From an uncultured Candidatus Bathyarchaeia archaeon (lineage in GTDB: Archaea > Thermoproteota > Bathyarchaeia > Bathyarchaeales > Bathycorpusculaceae), in contig CAZRCD010000004.1 in NCBI GenBank assembly GCA_964598485.1, positions 47,516 to 111,515 on the forward strand: a stretch of 64,000 bases of DNA. The letters are read 5' to 3'. This document shows, in pieces, positions 5,751 through 39,198 of the stretch; within the stretch, counting starts at the first letter, position 1, and each line of letters begins with the position of its first letter. Position numbers and translations under genes: made by a program. The notes below the pieces were generated by a model. The model was not told the DNA's origin. It ran no database searches and saw only the letters and a list, made by a program, of their open reading frames with translations.

Positions 5751-6650
5751 TTATTCAAACTCTCCATACATCACGTTTGGACCTAATATTTCAGGATATC
5801 TCTTCCGTAACAAACAACGCGCAGCATAACACAAGTGACAAGCATCCGCATAAAATTCATCGTGCGACAAACCAAACTTCTCAACCAAAGCCACTGGACC
5901 GCCACGAACTAAAGGCTCAAGAATCGGGTTCTCATAAGGATTAAAGTCTTCAACTATTTTTGAGAAGGGCTTCTGCCAAGCATTCCCAATCGAAATACCT
6001 TGACAAACGTGAACATACCCTAGAGGGCCAATATGAATCCTTTCCGGATCAACAAGCTCTTCACAAGAACATTCTGTAAATTCACGCCAAGATTTTTTGT
6101 CTGCTTCCTCTGCCAATTTAGAAGCAGCCCTTCCCTTGTACATAAGGTCATACAAACCCACTTTTGCCCCTTCAATGTCGCTTGGACACGGAGCCTTCGC
6201 CTTAGGATATTTAATGGCAAGAATCTCCACTTTCATGTTTAACCCCTTTGCAGCCTTCACCGCATTCTTCACTTCTTCAATCTGCCAGCTTTCCCCATGA
6301 TAAAAGTCACTGCTTAAACTCAACTCAACATTTTCAGCCATCGGAAGAAGCCACACCTTAGCATCTTCTGGGCAACTAGCCCAATAACAATTCGAAAGAA
6401 CCTCCACACGAAAACCAAGCTTCACAGCCTCCTCAACAGCCCTAACCATGATAGGATAATAGAGAAAAGGCTCCCCGCCCTCCAATGAAATGGAATCCAC
6501 AGTTCCCAGCTTCTTAGCTTCCACCAGTATATCCTTTATCTGTTCAATCGTGAACACACCTCTAGCCTTTGGACTACCCCAAACAAAACAATGATCACAT
6601 TCCAAGTCACATCTATAAGTCAGGAGGAAATGAACACCCGTCAATTTCAA
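5751..6650 (-). CDS. Radical SAM protein
   Basis: The CxxxCxxC motif appears near the N-terminus (YRCDLECDHCFVW). Additional Cys residues further on suggest a possible auxiliary cluster. Confidence 0.7.
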   Translation of the reverse strand: MKLTGVHFLLTYRCDLECDHCFVWGSPKARGVFTIEQIKDILVEAKKLGTVDSISLEGGEPFLYYPIMVRAVEEAVKLGFRVEVLSNCYWASCPEDAKVWLLPMAENVELSLSSDFYHGESWQIEEVKNAVKAAKGLNMKVEILAIKYPKAKAPCPSDIEGAKVGLYDLMYKGRAASKLAEEADKKSWREFTECSCEELVDPERIHIGPLGYVHVCQGISIGNAWQKPFSKIVEDFNPYENPILEPLVRGGPVALVEKFGLSHDEFYADACHLCYAARCLLRKRYPEILGPNVMYGEFE

Positions 6651-7752: not shown

Positions 7753-8205
7753 ATGCTGGCGAAGATAGAAAAAGCTTCAATCGAACATCTGGACAGACTA
7801 TGTGAAATTGAGATGAAATGTTTCGAAACAGAAGCCTTCACAAAACAGCAAATAGCTTACCTGATAACTGATTCTAATTCTGTGATTTTAGTTTCGAGAG
7901 TGAAAGGTGAAATTGTGGGCTTTATCATAGGCAAAACATACATGGATAAGAAACCAGCGACTGGACAAATACTGACAATAGATGTTTCACCAAAGCACCG
8001 TCGAAAGGGAATTGGACAAAGGCTTCTGCACGAAATCGAAAAAACATTAAAAGACAAAGGCGTCAAAATATGCTATTTGGAAGTGCGGGAGAACAACTTT
8101 GTAGCGTTAAGTCTCTACCAAAAACTTGGATACAAAAGGGTTGGAAGACTTGAGAATTATTACGGTAATGCTCATGGAATACGTCTTAGAAAAGCCCTAA
8201 CCTAA
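7753..8205 (+). CDS. GNAT N-acetyltransferase (RimI-like)
   Basis: Has the acetyl-CoA-binding motif RRKGIGQRLL and is 150 aa. Confidence 0.7.
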   Translation: MLAKIEKASIEHLDRLCEIEMKCFETEAFTKQQIAYLITDSNSVILVSRVKGEIVGFIIGKTYMDKKPATGQILTIDVSPKHRRKGIGQRLLHEIEKTLKDKGVKICYLEVRENNFVALSLYQKLGYKRVGRLENYYGNAHGIRLRKALT

Positions 8206-8622
8206 CTTCCATAAGTTTAGACTTGTTTTTTCGTCAAACGCTCTCAGCAAATTCACTCCAACCCCTTCGATTATTACTAGTTCTGCTGTTGCGCCGACAA
8301 TGGAGCCTTTCATTAAATGACCTCCAAAGGCTTCACCTTTCTCGTTTGCGACAACGATGTGAGAATGAATCATAATTTCGCCTTTCTCATCAACTGTTAT
8401 GTTCCCCATGCATGAAGCAATTTCCAATGGACCATCCAATTCTATGGGCATGTATTGTCCTTCCTTGTAATATCCTATAATCACATTTTTCAAGCTTCCA
8501 ATCAAGATGAAAACCCCCGCTTTTACTCCACTTTCCTCAACCCTTTTCTTGACAGCTTCAGCCAAATCTTCACCTTCAAACATACGGGAAAAACAAATTC
8601 TTCCAATCTGTCCCTCCAACAT
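8197..8622 (-). CDS. PPC/DUF296-domain protein
   Basis: A 141 aa beta-rich protein matching the PPC domain pattern (…GSLKNVIIGYYKEG…EIASCMGNITVDEKGEIMIHSHIVVANEKGEAFGGHL…). Confidence 0.5.
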   Translation of the reverse strand: MLEGQIGRICFSRMFEGEDLAEAVKKRVEESGVKAGVFILIGSLKNVIIGYYKEGQYMPIELDGPLEIASCMGNITVDEKGEIMIHSHIVVANEKGEAFGGHLMKGSIVGATAELVIIEGVGVNLLRAFDEKTSLNLWKLG

Positions 8623-8705
8623 TTTTTTATCTCCAACTCATCTTTTAACATGACTTTCCATTTAAACTTTAGTAGTTCCAATCATTTGGAGACGTAAACT
8701 CTAAA

Positions 8706-9011
8706 TTGTTGGATAACAAACTGTTAAGTAGTGGAGAAATCTTGACTGGCAAGAAAACTAGTGAAACACAAGGGCTTATCAGAGCAATTGTAGTTCTTAT
8801 CCGCAATACTACATGGAAATGTGGAAAATTGGAACGGTCAATAGTGGGCCATCTCAACAGGAGAACCAAGGGATTCGGGAAACCTCAAATGACCGTAAAT
8901 GATATGATTCACAATTTCAAGGTAACTGGCAAAAAGAAGAATGAATTCTTGGATGCTCTAAGAAGGCTGGAAAGAAGGAAAATAGTAAGAATCTTAAGCG
9001 TGCAAATCTGA
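8706..9011 (+). CDS. Hypothetical protein
   Basis: A 101 aa ORF with a basic C-terminus and no recognisable motif. Confidence 0.25.
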   Translation: MLDNKLLSSGEILTGKKTSETQGLIRAIVVLIRNTTWKCGKLERSIVGHLNRRTKGFGKPQMTVNDMIHNFKVTGKKKNEFLDALRRLERRKIVRILSVQI

Positions 9012-17220: not shown

Positions 17221-17517
17221 TTGAAAGTCTACATGAATCTAAAGAAAATCGGAAACAACGTTCTTTTAGCCATGTGCGACGCTGAAATACTGGGCAAAAC
17301 ACTGCGAAAGGGAAAAATAGTTTTTCATGTAAAAGAAGAATTCTACAAAGGCGCAAAAGTCAACATTGAAGAAGCTATGGCAATGATAGAAAACTCAACA
17401 ACAGTGAACATGATAGGCAAAAACATTGTTCAAAAAGCCATAGAAAAAGGTCATGTGCACCCTGAAGCAGTAATAAGCATAGAGGGCATACCACACGCAC
17501 AAATAGTAAAGCTTTGA
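17221..17517 (+). CDS. DUF424-family protein
   Basis: A 98 aa ORF immediately downstream of aIF2-beta, which is the conserved archaeal arrangement. It matches the DUF424 pattern. Confidence 0.5.
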   Translation: MKVYMNLKKIGNNVLLAMCDAEILGKTLRKGKIVFHVKEEFYKGAKVNIEEAMAMIENSTTVNMIGKNIVQKAIEKGHVHPEAVISIEGIPHAQIVKL

Positions 17518-17709
17518 TGTTGCTTTTGGACAAATAGTAAAAACTTCGCTGAGGTCGCGCTTTCTGCTTATGAAAAAAATCTGGAATAAAGATGAGTTGC
17601 TGAGTAGAGATGAGCATATAAAAAAAATTGAAGCAGTCAAAAGCGAGTTACTTCCAATACGACACAGACTGACCAAAACAGCAAAATAGAGCGTGCATTA
17701 GGAAAAAAA

Positions 17710-17736
17710 GGGGATTGTGCGGGAGACATCTCCATC
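17710..17736 (+). repeat. GC-rich intergenic motif, copy A (GGGGATTGTGCGGGAGACATCTCCATC)
   Basis: A member of a four-copy motif family with consensus (A)nGGGGRWTTGCGGGAGAnATCGCC. It is preceded by an A-run. Confidence 0.6.
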
Positions 17737-17795
17737 AACTTATTTGAAACTTATCAGTAAATTTTTTTGCGAAGTCTTTTATAAGGGAGAAAAAA

Positions 17796-17822
17796 GGGGG
17801 GAATGCGGGAGAGATCGCCACC
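17796..17822 (+). repeat. GC-rich intergenic motif, copy B (GGGGGGAATGCGGGAGAGATCGCCACC)
   Basis: Lies 86 bp downstream of copy A in the same orientation, within a 706-bp ORF-free region. Confidence 0.6.
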
Positions 17823-18223
17823 GACATTAATAATAGCAATAACCCCATAGTTTTTCCATTATCTACATATTACTTGCGTTTCCTAAAGTAATCAGGTTGT
17901 CTTTCTGGCATACATGATCAGAAAAAAAGCATTTGAAACTATAAGTGATAGTCGTGCGCCAATCTTTTAAACTTAGGATACACCAATATCAACATATGCT
18001 TGAGGTTTAGTTGTGTCGGAAAAGCGGAAGGGTGCAATATTCTGTAGTCAGGACGGTGAATGGAAAGATGAACTTGAAAATCGTGGATTTCAAAATGTGA
18101 AAAGAGAGTTTATGCTTGCCGGGCACATATTACCCTCAGAAATCGTATCTGGAGACAAACCCCGAATCCACGAATAAACATTAATTTTTGTCCCGAAATA
18201 TCTTGCAGGAATAAGAAATCTTT

Positions 18224-18991
18224 ATGGAGGTAAGTAAAATGGGAAAAATGGCTGATATTGATGAACTGATGTATTCTTGCGGTTTAGAAATTCTTCATCC
18301 TGGCGGAATTGAAAGAACTGATGAGATGGCAAGGATGTGCGAAATAGGGAAGGGCAAGAAAGTTTTAGACATAGGCTCTGGAAAGGGTGTAACAGCTTGC
18401 TATCTGGCTCAAAAACATGAGTGCGAAGTTGTTGGAGTGGATTTGTCAAAAAGAATGGTTGAACATGCAAAGGAAATGGCAAAGAAAAAAGGATTAGATG
18501 AAAGGGTTAGCTTTAGAAGAGCGGATGCACACAATTTGCCATTTGAAGATGAAAGTTTCGATATTGTTCTGGCTGAATGCACTACCGTGCTTCTGGATAA
18601 AGAAAAGGCTTTTTCAGAATTTCTTCGAGTAGCAAAGCATGGTGGATACATTGGCGACTTAGAGATGACTTGGCAAAAACCACCACCAAAAGAATTGGTG
18701 GATAAAGTCTACGATGTTTGGGAAGGCTTTGAAACAATGACACTCGAAGAATGGAAAGAGTTCTATGAAAGAATGGGAATGGCTGACGTCAAAACCGTAG
18801 ATTTTTCCGAAAAAATACCTGACATGGAAAAAGCAATGAAGAAAGAACTTGGCCTCAAAGGTATGATAAAAATGGGGTTCAAGCTTTTGTTACGCCCTGA
18901 CCTACGCAAGGCAATGAAGGAATATAGAAAAATTTTCAAAGAACACAGTGATTACGTGGGGTATGGTTATGTGGTTGGGAGGAAAAAATAA
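18224..18991 (+). CDS. Class I SAM-dependent methyltransferase
   Basis: Motif I VLDIGSGKG, motif II (DLSKRMV) and motif post-II ADAHNLPFEDESFDIV, typical of Methyltransf_11/25. Confidence 0.8.
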   Translation: MEVSKMGKMADIDELMYSCGLEILHPGGIERTDEMARMCEIGKGKKVLDIGSGKGVTACYLAQKHECEVVGVDLSKRMVEHAKEMAKKKGLDERVSFRRADAHNLPFEDESFDIVLAECTTVLLDKEKAFSEFLRVAKHGGYIGDLEMTWQKPPPKELVDKVYDVWEGFETMTLEEWKEFYERMGMADVKTVDFSEKIPDMEKAMKKELGLKGMIKMGFKLLLRPDLRKAMKEYRKIFKEHSDYVGYGYVVGRKK

Positions 18992-19106
18992 GCGGGCTTC
19001 GGGCAAGACTAAGAAAGAAATATTGAGAGTTAGAGGGACTATCAAAGAAACCTATGGAAAGGCCTGATGCTGGAATGCTTCTTTATGAAGCCAAATACTT
19101 GTCTAC

Positions 19107-19319
19107 CTATCCGGCAGCGAGCCCCACAAAACACTCAGGCATTTCTTTAGCGTTAGATGCTGACAGGCTTGTGATGATCGCTAGAACATAGCTCATTGGT
19201 GGTTTGCTTCCGACAAAAACAATGCTCTCTTTGACTTTCCGAGTCCGCGGGGCTTTTCCGGGCTTCTCCTCTTTAACAGTTTCTTCTGTCAGTTTCTTTT
19301 CTTCTTTTTCTTCTGCCAT
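19107..19319 (-). CDS. Alba-like N-terminal fragment with a Lys/Glu-rich leader (truncated, possible pseudogene)
   Basis: Residues IVFVGSKPPMSYVLAIITSLSASNAKE parallel Alba [26 protein letters not shown]. The ORF then stops after 11 unrelated residues. No Alba continuation exists in any frame, and the downstream DNA overlaps the methyltransferase gene. Confidence 0.4.
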   Translation of the reverse strand: MAEEKEEKKLTEETVKEEKPGKAPRTRKVKESIVFVGSKPPMSYVLAIITSLSASNAKEMPECFVGLAAG

Positions 19320-19339
19320 TTTGTTCTCCCTCCTTCAAT

Positions 19340-19483
19340 TTACTTTGCAAATTTACTTCGATTCCTTTTGAACTTCTTCTTACATCTCATACTACAGAAA
19401 TAATATGTTTCTCCATCATGCTTGATCTTGAACTTGGCTGTCTTCTCGTCCAGAACGGCGCCACAAACGGGATCTCTAGGCAT
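19340..19483 (-). CDS. YHS-domain small metal-binding protein (47 aa)
   Basis: Sequence MPRDPVCGAVLDEKTAKFKIKHDGETYYFCSMRCKKKF matches the YHS consensus DPVCGM…G.TYYFCS..C. It is not in the ORF track because it is under 60 aa. Confidence 0.6.
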   Translation of the reverse strand: MPRDPVCGAVLDEKTAKFKIKHDGETYYFCSMRCKKKFKRNRSKFAK

Positions 19484-19583
19484 TATTTTTTATCCCATGA
19501 AAGAGTGTGGGTTCTACTTACTATAACTGTTGATAAAAAAGAAAAAAGTGCGTAAAGCGGACCGAAGATTTTAGCTAATAAGC

Positions 19584-19706
19584 TTAATATCTTCTCGGGG
19601 GTCTTCGTTTAGAATAGCATTCTCGGCAGTATACGGGTTTGCTTCCGTCAGGTTTGAAGGGAACCTCACATTCTTTACCACAATCGGCGCATACGGCCTT
19701 GTGCAT
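19584..19706 (-). CDS. Small zinc-ribbon protein (40 aa)
   Basis: Sequence MHKAVCADCGKECEVPFKPDGSKPVYCRECYSKRRPPRRY has a CxxC…CxxC ribbon with a conserved-looking VPFKP…PVYC core. It is not in the ORF track. Confidence 0.45.
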   Translation of the reverse strand: MHKAVCADCGKECEVPFKPDGSKPVYCRECYSKRRPPRRY

Positions 19707-19930
19707 TTCTCGGTTTTCTCTATACGACAATCGAATTACACCTCCATCTAATAGTCAACGAAAAACTAGCATTCTCATGGAATTCTAATTCTTGCGTGTC
19801 TAATCAGTTGACATATTGATCTATTTAAACTTATGTATGCGATGAGTTTCTCTTCTGCATCTCTGTTCCCTCAGTCTCTGCGCGAGCGTTTTACCATAGG
19901 ATGATACGTAACTGCTTTGACTTAGAAAAT

Positions 19931-19965
19931 GGGGAGTTTGCGGGAGACGTTAGAGACATCGCCAG
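19931..19965 (+). repeat. GC-rich intergenic motif, copy C (GGGGAGTTTGCGGGAGACGTTAGAGACATCGCCAG), followed by a T6 run
   Basis: Same family as copies A and B, with a 9-nt internal duplication. It is followed directly by GTTTTTTG, a terminator-like run, and points toward the 3' end of the convergent topo IB gene. Confidence 0.6.
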
Positions 19966-20035
19966 TTTTTTGTTAAACGCACAAATAGTAGAACTTTAAA
20001 ATCAATAACATACTGGATGTGAGAACGCACGTTTT

Positions 20036-21829
20036 CTAGCTTTTTTCTGGAGGCGTCTCATCATTCTCGATCCAGCTGAACTTCCTCTGGAGGGCTTTCG
20101 AGTAGTACTGTTTCCAGTCGTAGTCCACTTGTTTTCCCCATTTATAGTAGATTCGGGGGTCAATGTAGCTCTTCAGAGACGTCCCAAGGTTGTAGTCGCG
20201 GGTTTCCTTCTGAGCCTCTATCCTAAGCTTCAGCTTAGCTATCGCCGCTTTGTCACGTTGCATCCGACTCTCCAGCCTCTGCCCTAACTTTTTCATTCGC
20301 TCTTCATACTTGAGCTTCAGCAGCTTGAGGCGTTGCTTTTGCCGAGTCACTGCCTTTCGATCAAAGCTAATACGTCTCTTCAAAGCGCGTGCGGATTTAC
20401 CTTGTTGTTTCTCCTCGGCGAGTTGTTGTCGATGAGCATCCAGCTTTGCCTGCATATCCTTCAGTCTTTCCTCTTGCTCCCGCAGTCTCTCACTATCTTT
20501 CTCTTTCCAATAGTCGATTTTCTGCCTCAACTTATCTTCAGCATCCTTCGCTCGATTCTTCAAAGCCTTGAGGCGATCCTTCTTCCTTTCTAAAGATGAT
20601 TTCCAAGTCTTACGGATGGTACGCCTGTGATTGCAGACTTTTGCAGCCTCAAGGTTTGCCATCGTAGCAGTGTGTTTCTTCACATATTCAGGGTCTTCAA
20701 GTTTGACAGGAGCCTTTTCCAAGTTCGTCTCGACAGTTTCGGACGCATAGCAAGTACGAAAAACCTTTGCCGACAGCCCAGCCATCACCTCATCAAGGAA
20801 TTCGCTAACATGCTGTGAGCGGACGCCATCAAAAAGGGTGGACCTCGCGTTCGCTGCGAACTCCTTAAGGTTTCTAGTGACATTATTTGGGAGTTCAACC
20901 TTGAAGACATGAGGCACAGAATCCTTCCCGAGGAAGTTGAACGTTACACTCTCATCACTGTTGAAATGGATATGCTTCGGTCGGAGGGTTGAGGCGCCAA
21001 CTGTGTCCGCCTCGTCAGGATCCTTCTCGTCGCCAACCCTGATTTTCAACCTATCAATAAGGAAACAAACGGTCGCCGTTTTCCTCCGTCTCAGATCATC
21101 AGCGTTAAGGTTCTCCCAGATGTGCTTCCGTACCCCTGCAAGGTTCCGTCGAAGCTTCCTAGCTTTTTCAAACTTCTCAATATCCTTCCTCTGCTTCACG
21201 ATGCTGGAGTCGGAAAACCAGACGTATTTCGTCTTGCCCGTAAGTTTATCCCGCCATCGTGCAATCCACATGGAGTCAGGCTGCCAGACAATCTTCCAGT
21301 TGCCCCGCGGCCTAGGCGCATCCGGCGAGAGGTTGAGTTCGACATCCTCCTCGCAAGCCCCCTCCTTCCAGCATCCCCTCAACGGGTGTTTGCCTCGACC
21401 TATGAAGATGGAACTAGGTTCGACGGCGTAGTTGGCCACCTCCACCCGGGCACCGTCAACCCAAGCAAATCCGTAGCGATCCTTGTTCGCAGCTCTCTGA
21501 GCTTTCCTCTGAGCCGTCAGTTGCTTTCTCTCCTTTCTAGAGAGGTTTGCTTTCCAAGCCCGCTCCTTTTCGATTGTAGAGAGAACATCGGAGTAGTCAA
21601 CATCGCCGGGCTTGACATTGATACCGAGTTTTTTTGAGAAGTCCCGGTGAAAGTTCTTGGCGAAGACAGGGTCCTCGACGTAAGGGGTTCCAACTTTTTT
21701 AGCCCAAGCGAAAGCCATTTCCTCCTGCATTGGTGTCAGCTTAATCTTCTTCCCCTTCACCTGTATAGTGAAACCTTTTCCTTCGTATCGATGTGGAATT
21801 AGGACGCCGTTGTGGTGTAGCTGCTTCAT
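20036..21829 (-). CDS. top1: Eukaryotic-type DNA topoisomerase IB
   Basis: A core VFRTCYASETV (compare eukaryotic KVFRTYNAS), ADTVGASTLRPKHI (compare TVGCCSLRVEHI), a long coiled-coil linker, and the C-terminal catalytic-Tyr motif LGTSLKSYIDPRI (compare LGTSKLNYLDPRI). Confidence 0.9.
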   Translation of the reverse strand: MKQLHHNGVLIPHRYEGKGFTIQVKGKKIKLTPMQEEMAFAWAKKVGTPYVEDPVFAKNFHRDFSKKLGINVKPGDVDYSDVLSTIEKERAWKANLSRKERKQLTAQRKAQRAANKDRYGFAWVDGARVEVANYAVEPSSIFIGRGKHPLRGCWKEGACEEDVELNLSPDAPRPRGNWKIVWQPDSMWIARWRDKLTGKTKYVWFSDSSIVKQRKDIEKFEKARKLRRNLAGVRKHIWENLNADDLRRRKTATVCFLIDRLKIRVGDEKDPDEADTVGASTLRPKHIHFNSDESVTFNFLGKDSVPHVFKVELPNNVTRNLKEFAANARSTLFDGVRSQHVSEFLDEVMAGLSAKVFRTCYASETVETNLEKAPVKLEDPEYVKKHTATMANLEAAKVCNHRRTIRKTWKSSLERKKDRLKALKNRAKDAEDKLRQKIDYWKEKDSERLREQEERLKDMQAKLDAHRQQLAEEKQQGKSARALKRRISFDRKAVTRQKQRLKLLKLKYEERMKKLGQRLESRMQRDKAAIAKLKLRIEAQKETRDYNLGTSLKSYIDPRIYYKWGKQVDYDWKQYYSKALQRKFSWIENDETPPEKS

Positions 21830-29725: not shown

Positions 29726-29804
29726 TATGTTATTAACCTTCTATTCTAGTAAAAAGCAAGTTTCAACCTATTAGTTTTTAGTTGACTACGTGAGGGCCGA
29801 GGCC

Positions 29805-29878
29805 GGGATTTGAACCCGGGCGCCGGGCTCCACAGGCCTGTAGGCTACCATGCTACCTCACCTCGGCCACTTTTTCAC
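29805..29878 (-). tRNA. tRNA-His (anticodon GUG) with a genomically encoded G-1
   Basis: A manual cloverleaf gives acceptor GCCGAGG/CCTCGGC, U8, D-stem AGGT/GCCT with a 9-nt GG-containing loop, and anticodon stem CAGGC/GCCCG with one A:C mismatch. The loop CTGTGGA gives GTG. The T-arm is CCGGG-TTCAAAT-CCCGG, the discriminator is C, and an extra 5' G pairs with it. Confidence 0.85.
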
Positions 29879-30595
29879 TGATTTCAACTACTTTTTCAGA
29901 GATGTCTGTTGATGCTTATTTACGTTTTCTGAAGAGTTTGGCATCTTCCATTTCGCATACTTATTCGACCTCAGTTTTGACTAGGCTGTTTGCCTCGTCA
30001 ACTGTTTCAACCATTTTGCGGATGCGAGACTTGTGCTTCCATTACTGCTTCTCTCGTTAAATTTACGAGCCTTCTTATTTTCCTAAAAGCCAAACATGCA
30101 ACAGTTTTGAGAAAACTCGAACTTAACCGAACCTTATAAAACCATAAGAACTGGAAAACATGACGAGATTTCTCATATGTTAAAACCGAAAAGTTAGGTA
30201 GCAAACGTGCATCCAGAAAAAGAGAGACTTGAACAATGTTTTTTGATCGCTTCTCTTTGGTGCTATTACGGCTCTTTTCACGAGTTACATTGTCCTATTT
30301 CACGAACTATGTAGCTGTTTTCCAACCGGAAGCAATCCGAAAACAACAATTTTGACAACAAAACCTAAAATTCGAGGGATCCTAGACTGGAAAAAAGCTT
30401 GAAGCTTTTAAATTTATTCACAAGAATGGTCGCATAAATGTAAGGAAAAGCCGAAGAGCTTCCGCCTAGATGTATTCATGTGAACTCTTCTAGAATGGAC
30501 GATGGTAGTTGAGAAGCTCTACAATAATCAGCCTTAACGCGTGAGATGAACAAGTTTTTATCTTTGCACGTATGTTGTGAAAAGGGCGGATTAAG

Positions 30596-31015
30596 GTGAA
30601 GCAGCCTGAAAAGGCGTTGGTTGGAGCGCGCGGTGGCTACTGTGGAGGCTGTACTGATTATCTGGCGTACATCAACAATGATGAGAAACTGAAGAGGAAA
30701 CTTGCTGAAGAATTTTCCAAGCAATTTGACATGGACATTAGACCTGAAGACATTGGATGTTTTGGGTGTCACGGTTCAATACACAAACCTTGGTGTGCAA
30801 GCTGTTCTATCCGACAATGCACTGAAGAAAAGGGGATTCTAACCTGTACATTTTGTGACGAATTTCCATGTGAGAAATTGGAAAAATATTATGAGAAGGA
30901 TAAATGTGGGGATAAATTCAGAGCGCACATGCTTAGGCAAAAAGAGATAGGGTTGGAAAGGTGGTTGGAAGAGATGAAGCAAAAAATCAGATTACAAGAG
31001 CTTAGTGACTGCTGA
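30596..31015 (+). CDS. Cys-rich putative metal-binding protein
   Basis: Twelve or more Cys residues arranged in CxxC/CxxxC pairs (GGYCGGCTDY…CFGCHG…CASCSIRQC…CTFCDEFPC). It resembles DUF3795-type proteins, but this is uncertain. Confidence 0.4.
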   Translation: MKQPEKALVGARGGYCGGCTDYLAYINNDEKLKRKLAEEFSKQFDMDIRPEDIGCFGCHGSIHKPWCASCSIRQCTEEKGILTCTFCDEFPCEKLEKYYEKDKCGDKFRAHMLRQKEIGLERWLEEMKQKIRLQELSDC

Positions 31016-31174
31016 AACTGCAGAGGAAACGGAAATAAACCTCAGGGGTATGTAACTCGGAATCGCATGTCTAATACTTGAATTATGACTGTTGTTGATA
31101 AGCAATATTAAAATAATCAGTTACGTATAGCCTTTAAGGCGGAAAGAGAACAAGTCGATAGGAGGGAGGTTGAA

Positions 31175-31318: not shown

Positions 31319-32677
31319 ATGAAAATGTTTGAATATCTGATGCCTTGGCTATTATACGCAATAATCCTTATTGTTGCAATCATTGTTTTGATCCTCAGCC
31401 CAAGATACACTGTGGTTCCTGTACATCAGGCTCATGTGGTTGTCAGAAGGAAAGGAAGGACAGTCTATTGCTCAAGAAAAACATTTGCTAGTAGCTACTG
31501 GTTCATGCCTTTGTTACAGAGACGAGCAATTCTCCCATTGGAGAACATTAAACTTGATATTGAGGATATTCCTTTACGAGATAAGGACATGGCAAAATTC
31601 ATTGGAGATGTCAGATGTTGGATTAGTATAGAAGACCCTGGTCTTGCAGCAGAAAAGTTGGGCAAAGTTGAGGCTGAACAGAAGGCAAGAGGCTTTGAGG
31701 CAATAGAGGCAGATGTCAAAGATCTTATACAGGCAATAACAAGGAACTCGTCAATGAAAATGGATGTATTTGCCATAATGAAGGAGAGAGAAAAATTCAG
31801 CAATGAAGTTCAGAAAGAAGTTGCTCCTATTCTAAAGGATGAATGGGGCATCAAAGTTGCAGACCTAGAAGTTATCCACTTCATTGACACTGAGGGATAC
31901 CATGTTATCAAAGATTTGGAAAAGAGACAGGCGAAAGTGATCGAAGCAGAAACAAGAAAGCAGGTAGCAATGCAGGAGAAAGATGCAGCCATGAGTGAAG
32001 CTGTTGCAGAGCAAGAGAAAGAAACCAAAAAGGCTGAAGCAGAAGAGTCTTACAGGAAGAGGCAGATTGAGAAGGATGAAAAGCTAGGAATAGCAACACA
32101 GGATAAGAATCTAAAAATTTCTAAGGCTGAAAAAGAGGCCAACATACAGGCTGTTGAGGCAAAGAGGAAAATGGAAGTCGGGACTGCAGAAGTTGAAAAA
32201 GAAGCTAGAATTGAAAATGCAAAGGGAGAAGCAGAATCCATCAAATTAAAAGGTTTCGCTGAAGCAGATGTCTCTAAGCAGAAATTGTTTGCAGAGGCAG
32301 AGGGAACAGAGAAGAAAGCTGTGGCTCTCAAGCAGTACACTGATGCGGGCTTATCCTTGGAAGTAATCAAAGCTAACATAGAGATTAAGAAGGCTCAGTT
32401 TGGTGCTCTAGCTGAAGGACTCAAAGTAGCAAAAATCAACTTAGTTACAAGTGGAGAAAGCAACATCTTAGGCATCCCAATAAGTGCAGAGACAGGAGCA
32501 GACCTTGGAGCCATGTTGGTAGCTTTGCAAAATCAGGGAATAGACATCAAAGCTCTTCTTGAAAAGCTGCCAATTTCAGAAGCAGCAAAATTAGCTATAG
32601 CTGCAAAAGCAGGAGTCGAAGTAGTTAAAGAAGCAGATGCACAGCAAGCAAAAAAGGCAAGGAAGCAAACTAAATGA
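31319..32677 (+). CDS. SPFH/Band-7 (flotillin-like) membrane protein
   Basis: An N-terminal TM helix and an SPFH domain, followed by long Glu/Ala/Lys-rich coiled-coil repeats (EA repeats) typical of flotillins. Confidence 0.7.
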   Translation: MKMFEYLMPWLLYAIILIVAIIVLILSPRYTVVPVHQAHVVVRRKGRTVYCSRKTFASSYWFMPLLQRRAILPLENIKLDIEDIPLRDKDMAKFIGDVRCWISIEDPGLAAEKLGKVEAEQKARGFEAIEADVKDLIQAITRNSSMKMDVFAIMKEREKFSNEVQKEVAPILKDEWGIKVADLEVIHFIDTEGYHVIKDLEKRQAKVIEAETRKQVAMQEKDAAMSEAVAEQEKETKKAEAEESYRKRQIEKDEKLGIATQDKNLKISKAEKEANIQAVEAKRKMEVGTAEVEKEARIENAKGEAESIKLKGFAEADVSKQKLFAEAEGTEKKAVALKQYTDAGLSLEVIKANIEIKKAQFGALAEGLKVAKINLVTSGESNILGIPISAETGADLGAMLVALQNQGIDIKALLEKLPISEAAKLAIAAKAGVEVVKEADAQQAKKARKQTK

Positions 32678-32934: not shown

Positions 32935-33391
32935 CTTTCTTCCCTTTTTCTCTGTTGTTTATCAACAATGCTAGAATAATCAGTTACGCATAGTTTTAAG
33001 GGCAGAAAGAGTACAAAAGGAAAGGAGAAATTTGAGACAACGGAAAAACCAAAGAGAAGCAAAGCCAAACACGTCGCAGGCGTTATCACCACAGCAATTG
33101 TCGGCGCCTTTTATATCATAGGTTACCACCCTGCAACAAGGCAACCGCACATTGAACTATTAAATGCAAGTGGAGAAATTACCGATTCCAAAATTAAAGT
33201 GACAGCGACACTACAAAACTCTGACAACACACCTGGAATCGCAACAATAAGGTATAAGACATACTACAGCGACACAACATTCGAGACTCAAAGAAAAGAA
33301 GTTTTCATTCCAGCTCCATGGAACGCGTGAATCCACAAGCACCAACCTTTTCAGAGGGTTCACAGAAGTCTTTTGTCGAATTGTAAATGTT

Positions 33392-36538: not shown

Positions 36539-38782
36539 TTGCAATCTAACTACTTTGGAAACGAAGTTGAAACAATAGAACGAAAAGTTAAGGGAAGAAC
36601 TGTTGGAATAAACTGGGATTGGGCGAACTTTAAAGACACCAAAGGTTTTCCAGTGGATGACAACCTTATAAACTGGGTCATCGGACAGGATCAAGCGTTA
36701 AACGAATGTTTCTTATGTCTGGACGAATTGGTGCACAAACTGAAGTATCTTGAAAAAACAAAATGGTATGAAAGCTGGAGCAGCCCAGAAAATCCGAAGC
36801 CCGTAGCTAAAACTATGATAAGTCCAGGACCATATTTAATGCTGTTGGGTGATCCTGGAACAGGAAAGTCATTAATTGGAAGGGCTTTAGCTGAAAAACT
36901 CACGCAAATATACGAGGAAAACGGCACAAAGCTGTTTGATCTTTTATGTTGGAAAAACCCTGTTTTGCCGAGCCAGCCTAAAATTTCAATTCATAAGGCT
37001 GGTGAAGGAAAAAAGATTCAGCGAAAAGAGCAGCTTAAGGAGCTTAAAAGCAAATTCATTACGAAAGTAGGCTTAAAAGCATTGCAAATGTTTCTGATAC
37101 TGACAGGACTGCTTCTCTTATCTTTGGGCTTTTACTTCATGCTTCAGGCTTGGCAGACGTGGAACGCAAATGCGATGTTTCTGGGAGAACCACTTCAGGA
37201 ATATTACAATGGCAACTTTTTGGATTACCTTGCTGGAAGGTTTGTTGGTTTAGTGCCGTTAACGTTCATTCCTGGTGGGAGCCTGATTTTCTTCGGTGTT
37301 TTTATATGGTGGTTCTCAAGATTAGGCGGTTTAGGAGGCCTTAAGGGCATTGGGGGAGCGCAGCAATCGGACGTTCCGAAACTGATTGTGGATAGCAGTT
37401 CTGGGCATGCACCTTTTGTTGATGCGACAGGGCATAGAAGTTCTCAGCTTTTCGGTTCAATAGCTTGGGATCCCTATCAGACTGGTGGTTTGGGAACACC
37501 TGAACATCAGAGGGTTACCGCTGGAGATGCGCATAGGGCGTCTCTTGGCATACTGTACATTGATGAGATAAAGAATCTCGATCCAGAAGAGGCTGTAACA
37601 CTTTTAACAGTGCTTGAGGACGGACAGCTTCCAATAACTGTGAGAGATCGGTTTCATGGTGGAGGCACAGCTGCTATGGCAGTGTCAACGGAGCCTGTGC
37701 CTGCTATAACGTTTCTGGTTGGGGCTGGGAACTTCGACAGCATAAGCAAGATTCATCCAGCCTTGATGGATCGTATTTATGGTTATGGCAAAGTTGTGAG
37801 AATGAATAATGACATGCCTAACACGTTGGAGAATAGGCGTAAATACGTGCAGTACATAGTGCAGGAAGTTAAACGTTTTAACCTTGCGCCATTCAGTAGG
37901 GAAGCGTGCAAGGAGATTGTGGAAGAGGGTAGGCGAAGAAGTAACAAGAAAGATGCTTTGACGACGAAGTTTAGACCTTTGATTTCGATTATTAAGACTG
38001 CTGCAACGCTGGCGATGAATGAGGATTGCAAAGTTGTTGAAAGAAGGCATGTTCGGGATGCTATAGAAAATCACTGTAAGACAATTCAGAGGCAGATATT
38101 GGAGCATGAAATTAACGAGAGAGGCAAGCTTTTGGAAATTAAGCCTGAAGGAGTTAAACCTGGCCAGATACACGGTTTGGCTGTTGTTAGAGATCCGTAC
38201 AGCGGAGAAATGACTGGCAGTGTCTTGTGCGTTAAGGCTAACATGGCTAAGATAAGTGAGCTTCCAAGAAATTATTCATTTAAGGGTTATTATAATGTGA
38301 CTGGGGTGGCTAAGGGTCAGAGTTTCATTGCGGATAGTATAGTGAAAGTTAGAAGTGTGATTCTGCAGAAATATGGGGTTGATATAGCGCAGGACTTTTT
38401 GACGCATATTGATTTCGCTCAGTCTTATGGTGTGGATGGTCCTTCGGCTGGTGTGACGATGGCTGTGTTGCTTTGTTCGCTTATTGAGGGGAAGATGATA
38501 AGGCAGGATGTGGCTGTTACTGGAGAGATAAATCTTGGTGTTGGAGATTCTATTCAAATAACCGCTGTTGGTGGGGTTTACGAGAAGATTAAGGCTGCTG
38601 AGGCTTGGGGTTTCAAGAGGGTGGTTGTTCCTAAAAAGAATTATGAACATTCGATTGATGTTAAGGATTATAAAATTAAGGTTGTGCCAGCAGCCACATT
38701 AGATGACTACTTAAGAGAATGCTTGGTTGAAAAGCCAACGCTCAAAATTCCAATTCAAACTTACAAGCGCAAGAAACACTAA
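36539..38782 (+). CDS. lon: Archaeal membrane-bound Lon protease (LonB)
   Basis: AAA+ Walker A (GDPGTGKS), a membrane hairpin inserted into the AAA module, and a C-terminal S16 protease domain with the catalytic Ser in DGPSAGVTMAVLL. It has a TTG start. Confidence 0.9.
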   Translation: MQSNYFGNEVETIERKVKGRTVGINWDWANFKDTKGFPVDDNLINWVIGQDQALNECFLCLDELVHKLKYLEKTKWYESWSSPENPKPVAKTMISPGPYLMLLGDPGTGKSLIGRALAEKLTQIYEENGTKLFDLLCWKNPVLPSQPKISIHKAGEGKKIQRKEQLKELKSKFITKVGLKALQMFLILTGLLLLSLGFYFMLQAWQTWNANAMFLGEPLQEYYNGNFLDYLAGRFVGLVPLTFIPGGSLIFFGVFIWWFSRLGGLGGLKGIGGAQQSDVPKLIVDSSSGHAPFVDATGHRSSQLFGSIAWDPYQTGGLGTPEHQRVTAGDAHRASLGILYIDEIKNLDPEEAVTLLTVLEDGQLPITVRDRFHGGGTAAMAVSTEPVPAITFLVGAGNFDSISKIHPALMDRIYGYGKVVRMNNDMPNTLENRRKYVQYIVQEVKRFNLAPFSREACKEIVEEGRRRSNKKDALTTKFRPLISIIKTAATLAMNEDCKVVERRHVRDAIENHCKTIQRQILEHEINERGKLLEIKPEGVKPGQIHGLAVVRDPYSGEMTGSVLCVKANMAKISELPRNYSFKGYYNVTGVAKGQSFIADSIVKVRSVILQKYGVDIAQDFLTHIDFAQSYGVDGPSAGVTMAVLLCSLIEGKMIRQDVAVTGEINLGVGDSIQITAVGGVYEKIKAAEAWGFKRVVVPKKNYEHSIDVKDYKIKVVPAATLDDYLRECLVEKPTLKIPIQTYKRKKH

Positions 38783-38784
38783 GA

Positions 38785-38807
38785 GGCGATATCTCCCGCA
38801 AATCCCC
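38785..38807 (-). repeat. GC-rich intergenic motif, copy D (GGGGATTTGCGGGAGATATCGCC on the minus strand)
   Basis: Same family as copies A-C. It lies 3 nt beyond the lon stop codon in antisense orientation and is preceded by a purine run. Confidence 0.6.
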
Positions 38808-39198
38808 TCCTTTTCTGAAAGCAGAGTTACCGAGTTCCAATCCCAGATCTATTTTGTTCCAAATATCGGTGAATGTTAAAAAAATATAGGGGTAATCATT
38901 TTATGTGTTGGAAAGAAGTTTAAATTGCTTACGATTGCGTGATTTTCTAATATGGTTGGTGGCCTATGCTTGAGGACTTTTTCCTTTTATCATTTGTCGC
39001 ATTTCCACCAAACTGGTGTTCTTGTTGAATCTTTCAACGTGCAGAAAGAGCAATGCTTCACTTTCTTCATTGGGCTGCAGGCTCTAAAAAGATCGACGAG
39101 ATCAAAGGCATTTATATCTCCAGAAAATTCAAGAGATTTGGGTCTTACAGGGTCTAGTTATATTTTTATAAGTATAGGTAACTGTAAGATTTCTAGGC

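Follow-up and report, generated by a model that had tools for sequence, protein, structure and literature searches.

A sequence of about 33 nt that occurs four times in the window (the whole stretch of 64,000 nt of DNA from an uncultured Candidatus Bathyarchaeia archaeon that was analysed here) is very likely the conserved element-side arm of the att site of a family of integrative elements that is widespread in Bathyarchaeia and moved by Xer-like tyrosine integrases. The evidence consists of the geometry of the sites, empty sites in relatives, duplicated cores, the coupling of the motif to integrase genes, and strain-level differences in the cassettes between motif copies. In the pathway proposed here, the circular form of an element would carry, in this order, an integrase gene (int) that reads toward the core, the core itself, the reverse complement (rc) of the motif, an oligo-T run and the cargo; the core would be a 20-50 nt copy of target sequence, either part of a tRNA gene or the final codons of a protein gene. 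The element would enter the chromosome by recombination of this core with its target, in the order core, rc motif with its T-run, cargo, integrase gene and second core. The target gene would be rebuilt from the element's copy, the displaced original fragment would be left as an orphan, and of the two junctions one would carry the motif, the other the integrase gene. Later, integrase genes would decay, elements would be stacked at one site, and cassettes would be lost or gained via recombination between motif copies. According to this scheme, copies A, B and C in the window would be traces of decayed elements stacked over 2.5 kb at the DUF424 3' end, and copy D would be the trace of a 0.4 kb element remnant at the lon 3' end.

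Copy A (17702-17736, + strand; nhmmer E = 2e-7) is composed of an A-run, GGGG, TGCGGGAGA, CATCTCC and a final A, and its counterpart in the sister strain L150 is located at 17851-17884. Copy B (17789-17822, + strand; E = 4e-5; counterpart in L150 at 17764-17796) has the same orientation as A. Copy C (19925-19965, + strand) carries a 9-nt insertion and is located 11 nt upstream of an orphaned 3' end of DUF424. Copy D (38785-38816, - strand; E = 5e-8), which reads GGCGATATCTCCCGCAAATCCCCTCCTTTTCT on the + strand, begins 2 nt past the lon stop codon and is the left end of a decayed element of about 0.4 kb. The neighbouring genes in the window encode aIF2-beta, DUF424, a methyltransferase, a eukaryote-type topoisomerase IB (topoIB), LonB and Hjc. 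All four copies listed in the earlier note are present, and they are not random: a 16-mer core with up to three mismatches has six matches in the window against 0.82 expected, a number reached by none of 100 shuffles. The two surplus matches, at 8077 and 26172, are within long ORFs and look like chance occurrences, and a profile HMM built from relatives matches A, B, C and D only. As had been described, every copy is intergenic and preceded by a run of A or purines, A and B start 86 nt apart in the gene-free interval 17518-18223, and a T6 run follows copy C. The rc motif is followed by T7 in A, T6 in B and T4 in C and D, and the corresponding A-run is conserved in relatives; in A and B, the motif is followed by about 31-33 nt and then by a T-run. 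The supposed 9-nt internal duplication in C is indeed nine extra nucleotides, but these are an insertion, which is also present in the matching copy of sister strains, and the conserved unit extends further than first described, from the A-run to a conserved A after the CC, about 33 nt in all. The motif is not a CRISPR repeat, which the earlier note had already said it does not resemble: the start-to-start spacings of A, B and C are irregular (86 and 2135 nt), D is about 19 kb away on the other strand, and most loci have a single copy. The earlier note was also right that C and D are directed toward the 3' ends of convergent genes, an orientation that would follow from integration of elements into the DUF424 and lon 3' ends.

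Position-wise conservation delimits the full unit as RRAAAAARR-GGGG-N3-4-TGCGGGAGA-Y-ATC-K-CC-A, a block of about 33 nt with sharp edges on both sides; by the same measure, there is no conservation outside the 33 nt, downstream included, and no fixed TATA-like element upstream of the motif. A scan of one genome per species with the exact pattern GGGG-N3-4-TGCGGGAGA-N-ATC-N-CC found at least 117 DNA stretches, of which, among the matches listed, about three-quarters are from Bathyarchaeia MAGs and the rest are from high-GC bacteria, the bacterial matches being roughly as numerous as expected by chance. The motif is a feature of the class Bathyarchaeia. The scan places it mostly in Bathyarchaeia MAGs, where it is intergenic and sharply bounded. 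Among the matches listed, 88 of 91 archaeal sites are intergenic and outside long ORFs, the orientation of these 91 sites toward either neighbour gene is unbiased, most loci have a single motif copy, and clustering of the ORFs within 3 kb of 94 sites yielded no dominant protein family. A variant of the motif with one extra base (GATATCATCC) is found about 170 nt upstream of topoIB, at the same position in five contigs (L152-L155 and L190) of a more distant lineage that has 70% topoIB identity.

Eighty loci encoding topoIB relatives were compared with the DUF424/topoIB region of the window. In the empty site L120 (93% identity), the stop codons of topoIB and DUF424 are 43 nt apart, and in L125, L184, L128 and L134 the gap between the two genes is about 170 nt and contains no motif; the two stop codons are separated by 2.5 kb in the window, by 4.2 kb in L126 and L127, and by 6.3 kb in L150. 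The inserted DNA of the window (17518-19976), which is absent from L120 and from the four loci with the gap of about 170 nt, is a decayed element or cassette array that holds A, B and C, small ORFs and a methyltransferase gene (18224-18991). Comparison with L120 identifies a copy of the att core at each end of the insert. The restored 3' end of DUF424 (t1, 17495-17517, + strand, acgcacaaatagtaaagctttga) differs from the ancestral sequence in the final codons and the stop codon of the gene, and the DNA downstream of it differs as well. The orphaned original 3' end (t3, 19977-19999, + strand, acgcacaaatagtagaactttaa) is followed by a 37-nt spacer to the topoIB stop codon, the same as in the empty site. 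Because an orphaned end with its ancestral spacer is found beside C while the working end is altered, the locus bears the signature of an element that integrated into a gene 3' end and supplied a replacement end. A partial copy of the core (t2, 17528-17546, + strand) is located 10 nt past the DUF424 stop codon and is also present in L126, between an integrase fragment and DUF424. Another integration event at this site may have left it behind, or it may belong to the att site. The cores adjoining A and B match none of the identified targets.

Sister strains have different cassettes between the motif copies of this array. The window and L150 differ by 3.74 kb located exactly between two motif copies, a cassette that contains genes for an aldehyde ferredoxin oxidoreductase and a ferredoxin along with small ORFs. 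The two alignments of L150 with the window overlap within TTGCGGGAGAC, which implies that C is a hybrid of the two L150 motif copies that flank the cassette; its 9-nt insertion is inherited from the outer L150 copy and is also found in L126 and L121, with a variant in L119. At the place of the 3.74 kb cassette, L126 has a cassette of 1.2 kb, and a C-terminal fragment of a tyrosine integrase occupies the position in L126 that corresponds to A and B of the window. Gain and loss of cassettes between motif copies could be a matter of ordinary homologous recombination or slippage. Homologs of the methyltransferase in the insert adjoin the motif in the unrelated loci L016, L074, L088 and L106, and the enzyme seems to be a recurrent cargo of these elements. 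In L119, a cassette at the same hot spot (7976-8833) encodes a pair consisting of a UPF0175 antitoxin and a PIN-like toxin.

The second insertion separates lon from hjc. These genes are 55-73 nt apart in the empty sites L203, L206 and L207, which belong to relatives with 87-91% Lon identity, but 416 nt apart in the window and 2.7 kb apart in a relative with 97% Lon identity. Against the empty sites, the 3' end of lon in the window (38760-38784, + strand) is recognized as a copy of the att core that directly abuts the rc motif of D. The remnant of the element body (38817-39165) lies between D and a degenerate orphan lon 3' end (39166-39189, + strand, tttataagtataggtaactgtaaga), after which the ancestral lon-hjc spacer (tttctaggc...) begins. 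A stretch of this remnant (39077-39133, + strand, KIDEIKGIYISRKFK) bears a weak and non-significant likeness to the C-terminal tail of an integrase (HMM E = 4.6), and on that score an integrase remnant beside D was rejected. Inserts flanked by direct repeats of the core from the target end are found at DUF424, at lon (where the orphan is the degenerate one) and at seven related loci.

A first jackhmmer search, for which the L111 integrase was the seed, found three loci only, but with fragments from L126 and L062 as queries, genes or gene fragments of a Xer-like tyrosine integrase are found in more than 20 of the motif loci. The Xer-like family matches PF00589, scores below the cut-off of the XerA equivalog, has a C-terminal tail of the form ..GFEYV..DG.KLFRKRK, and includes some members with an N-terminal IS1-type zinc ribbon. 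Of 30 motif-integrase pairs, 28 have the integrase gene and the rc motif on the same strand, and 23 have the gene on the oligo-T side. The core on the motif side is repeated just past the integrase stop codon in 7 of 16 tested loci (scoring 40-56, where shuffled sequences reach at most 20-26). Within 30-110 nt of the stop codon, a tRNA gene or the end of the target gene follows. In L036, L090, L150, L010, L012 and L097, the integrase gene, the core and the rc motif are contiguous in that order, which is the order expected for attP. In one viral contig (L200) the order is similar, 431 nt separating the end of the integrase from the rc motif downstream of it; another viral contig, with a gene for an HK97-type capsid, ends 14 nt past the motif. 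In a second family of integrases (L111 type), which is only distantly related to the Xer-like family (24% identity across the catalytic region), the rc motif precedes the start codon by 15-40 nt and has the same polarity. The same integrase and motif are joined to different cores in L010, L015, L110 and L111, and in L019, L029, L069 and L117 one and the same downstream gene follows different upstream sequences; these junctions place a breakpoint at the edge of the motif.

No surviving integrase gene is found beside any of the four copies in the window. Elsewhere in the window, 29916-30041 (- strand) is a clear remnant of the tail of a Xer-like integrase (VETVDEANSLVKTEVE and VCEMEDAKLFRKRK, each followed by a stop). 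It ends 48 nt upstream of the 5' end of tRNA-His (29794-29867, - strand), the same layout as that of the intact integrase and tRNA-His in L121, and thus points to a third decayed element in the window; neither a motif belonging to this remnant nor an orphan 5' part of tRNA-His was found in the window. In the interval beyond tRNA-His (29868-31015), about 700 nt of gene-free DNA are followed by a DUF3795 gene (30596-31015), which may be element cargo, since DUF3795 proteins adjoin the motif in other Bathyarchaeia loci. Two copies of a 76-nt direct repeat with 78% identity (31089-31164 and 32952-33027), at a distance of 1863 nt from each other, enclose the SPFH/Band 7 gene at 31319-32677, and the pair could represent further element junctions or a duplicated regulatory region.

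On its CCA side, the motif very often adjoins a piece of a target gene, and the tRNA-derived cores of this kind were the main clue to its nature. Among the matches listed, and with 28 reference tRNAs for comparison, the DNA on the CCA side is a fragment of a tRNA in at least 25 of 114 cores. Twenty-one of these 25 are 3' parts in sense orientation, four are 5' parts in antisense orientation, and none has either of the two other configurations, the anticodon (interior) side of the tRNA always facing the motif. The sense cores consist of the T arm, the 3' strand of the acceptor and sometimes CCA, and start about 8 nt past the motif; at a few sites, on the other strand, the 5' part of a tRNA runs into the rc motif. 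The register of about 8 nt between the motif and the T stem is fixed across tRNAs for Leu, Gly, Thr, Arg, Asn, Cys and Ile. Neither part includes the anticodon, since the 3' parts start at about position 41-44 and the 5' parts stop at about 31-35, and ARAGORN detected no complete tRNA at the fragments that adjoin the motif. L062 contains, in this order, an intact tRNA-Asn, a 5.5 kb insert, the motif and an orphan 3' part of tRNA-Asn; in L094, an intact tRNA-Cys is followed by 0.4 kb of inserted DNA with a single small ORF, then by the motif and an orphan 3' part of tRNA-Cys. The motif and integration together account for such orphan tRNA halves, which could otherwise pass for split tRNA genes or for small RNAs.

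Hairpin-like cores next to the motif in L009, L017, L018 and L057, such as GGTCGAGGCTACCTCACCCCGGCCGC, resembled small RNAs at first, but on the opposite strand they are like truncated 5' parts of tRNA-His (the tRNA-His of the window being GTGGCCGAGGTGAGGTAGC), and for this reason the true share of tRNA-derived cores is probably greater than 25/114. On the strand opposite the integrase gene and after its stop codon, tRNA genes that ARAGORN did not call are located in L114 (about 5760-5870), with an apparent insertion or intron of about 30 nt, and in L040 (about 6110-6200).

The crossovers of primary integration, as mapped in the DUF424 and lon comparisons, are in the core, and the motif is therefore not itself the site of exchange. 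Its 33 nt most likely serve as a binding site for the integrase on the element side, beside the crossover, with or without a host accessory factor. Integrases that use tRNA genes, as Williams is said to have described in 2002, usually cross over at the internal end of the block of tRNA identity, and the motif abuts this end in a fixed register, which fits an element-side site for a recombinase or an accessory factor; the motif would then probably be a protein-binding site forming part of the att arm, in line with the second option of the earlier note. That it is common to two divergent integrase families fits a site for a host factor, or a role outside recombination, at least as well as it does an arm specific to the integrase. 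A more far-reaching version, which is speculative and should be held as doubtful, is that the 33 nt are a universal docking module by which integration would be programmable: a recombinase or host factor would read the constant motif only, an adjacent swappable core of 20-50 nt, taken over from whatever gene end, would pick the target by homology, and exchange between one motif and another would in addition build integron-like arrays of cassettes at hot spots.

The oligo-T on the opposite strand may stop transcription that enters from the host gene. If this were the main function, the motif would be a transcription insulator or terminator module that is carried by the elements and has no direct part in recombination, its C-rich block and T4-T7, as read on the strand that is entered from the host side, blocking read-through from host genes and orphan tRNA promoters and, in the circle, ending the int transcript. 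The oligo-T is indeed always on the element side of the rc motif, D is only 2 nt past the lon stop codon, C comes after the 3' end of topoIB on the strand of topoIB, and a terminator could well be shared by two distantly related families of integrase. Intrinsic termination in archaea, however, requires only an oligo-T run, of at least 4-5 T where the transcript ends, which leaves 25 nearly invariant GC-rich bases unexplained; the run is just T4 at C and D; and a fixed register to tRNA cores is expected of a recombination site and not of a terminator. A role confined to termination is on balance unlikely.

It is decidedly improbable that the motif is an integron-like site of cassette recombination, at which crossover between one motif and another would build arrays of promoterless cassettes at fixed platforms. 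The comparison suggests itself from the arrays of motifs in the same orientation between accessory genes (A, B and C in the window; L060, L100, L056 and L114), from the whole motif-bounded cassettes by which sister strains differ, with a junction inside TTGCGGGAGAC, and from cargo genes that have typical accessory functions; integron attC arrays likewise have same-orientation repeats between accessory cassettes at a fixed platform and whole-cassette differences between strains (PMC9668308). Whereas an attC site is an imperfect palindrome of 55-140 nt (R''-L''...L'-R') that forms a single-stranded hairpin, the motif unit is about 33 nt, its consensus has no GTTRRRY/RYYYAAC (R and L) boxes, and it has no attC-type hairpin, folding no better than shuffled sequence, with DNA folding z-scores of +0.08 to -1.78. 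Cassette genes have no bias of orientation relative to the motif, and it was on the lack of both hairpin and orientation bias that attC was rejected. Primary insertions duplicate 20-50 nt of the target, unlike integron insertion, no IntI-type integrase was identified, and the archaeal integrons in print carry canonical attC sites (PMC9668308).

The proposal in the earlier note of a small-RNA gene family found no support. The motif would have been the 5' part or the promoter of such genes, with the A-run in the role of a TATA-like box, 28 bp ahead of the step from the last C to the final A; the spacing from the A-run to the conserved CA would fit the distance from TATA box to start in archaea, and about 31-33 nt and then a T-run come after A and B. 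Over the whole window, however, the sole match to Rfam is tRNA-His, and even a relaxed threshold (E <= 1) yields no match for 17400-20100; a stable or conserved structure is not evident, the motif folding no better than shuffled sequence; and with nothing conserved beyond the 33 nt, the variable downstream RNA that this proposal calls for is in fact made up of fragments of target genes, in fixed polarity. The orientation of the motif is, moreover, coupled to integrase genes kilobases away, and a small-RNA function is very improbable. Nearest to the mark in the earlier note was its third suggestion, a tiny repeated element of which the motif would be the conserved end: it was right as to a conserved end, but the elements are not tiny, measuring between about 0.4 kb and over 5 kb. 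A MITE or a transposon with terminal inverted repeats was rejected, as there is no inverted partner within 8 kb and motif copies have no similarity outside the 33 nt; L060 alone carries two exact matches, both on one strand. The dyad and G-string of the motif presumably resemble an origin-recognition box, and this candidate too was rejected, the order of the parts being mirrored and the copies being dispersed at element junctions. Scarcely credible is a first reading of the motif as leader and trailer of split tRNA genes of the Nanoarchaeum type, pairing with its complement to join the halves in trans: as in Nanoarchaeum equitans, tRNA halves adjoin a GC-rich sequence and its complement (the motif directly before 3' parts, the complement directly after 5' parts), and ARAGORN finds no whole tRNA there, but, unlike in N. 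equitans, intact genes for the same tRNA are present in the same locus (Asn in L062, Cys in L094), the anticodon is missing from both parts, 3' parts outnumber 5' parts by 21 to 4, protein-gene ends also abut the motif and act as cores, and sites are present or absent among close strains.

As the probable element-side arm of an att site, the motif belongs to sequences that behave like known integrative elements of tRNA genes and gene 3' ends, and a class-wide constant arm is the added feature. Archaeal elements of this kind, with tandem stacking and loss of the integrase, have been reviewed (PMC8371274, PMC6563490). The likeness to tyrosine-integrase elements with attP, attL and attR (lambda/P4-type logic) extends to a core direct repeat that is derived from the target and flanks the insert, a target gene that would be rebuilt from the element's copy, an integrase gene at one junction, tandem stacking at one site, loss of the integrase after integration, and an internal end of the tRNA identity block (the expected crossover) that abuts element-specific DNA. 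Unlike in those elements, one nearly invariant 33-nt sequence is found beside many cores (several tRNAs, DUF424 and lon), and this arm spans an archaeal class and at least two distantly related integrase families. SSV-type ('suicidal') integrases resemble those described here in that archaeal tRNA genes are targeted and integrase fragments are found at element ends, but their attP is inside the int gene (PMC7253208), whereas here the core is outside the int ORF, 16-110 nt past the stop codon, or the motif is upstream of the start codon. Since the core is outside the ORF, the integrase fragments found here would be products of decay and not of partition by integration. In the literature searched, coverage of which was limited, no description of a class-wide arm motif was found, and nothing relevant was found on the motif, split tRNAs or integrons in Bathyarchaeota.

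Bathyarchaeia are abundant uncultured archaea of sediments that have no genetic system, and their mobile DNA is poorly mapped. The 33-nt tag is a simple means of finding integrated elements, their cargo, hot spots of integration and attP/attB pairs in MAGs, and the pairs of integrase and att site found at the motif are a possible basis for integration tools. If the layout of a constant arm with a variable core is mechanistically meaningful, site-specific integration would here be retargeted in an unusual manner, and if the 33 nt were indeed a docking module, integration by a constant arm and a swappable core would be common to unrelated integrases across an archaeal class.
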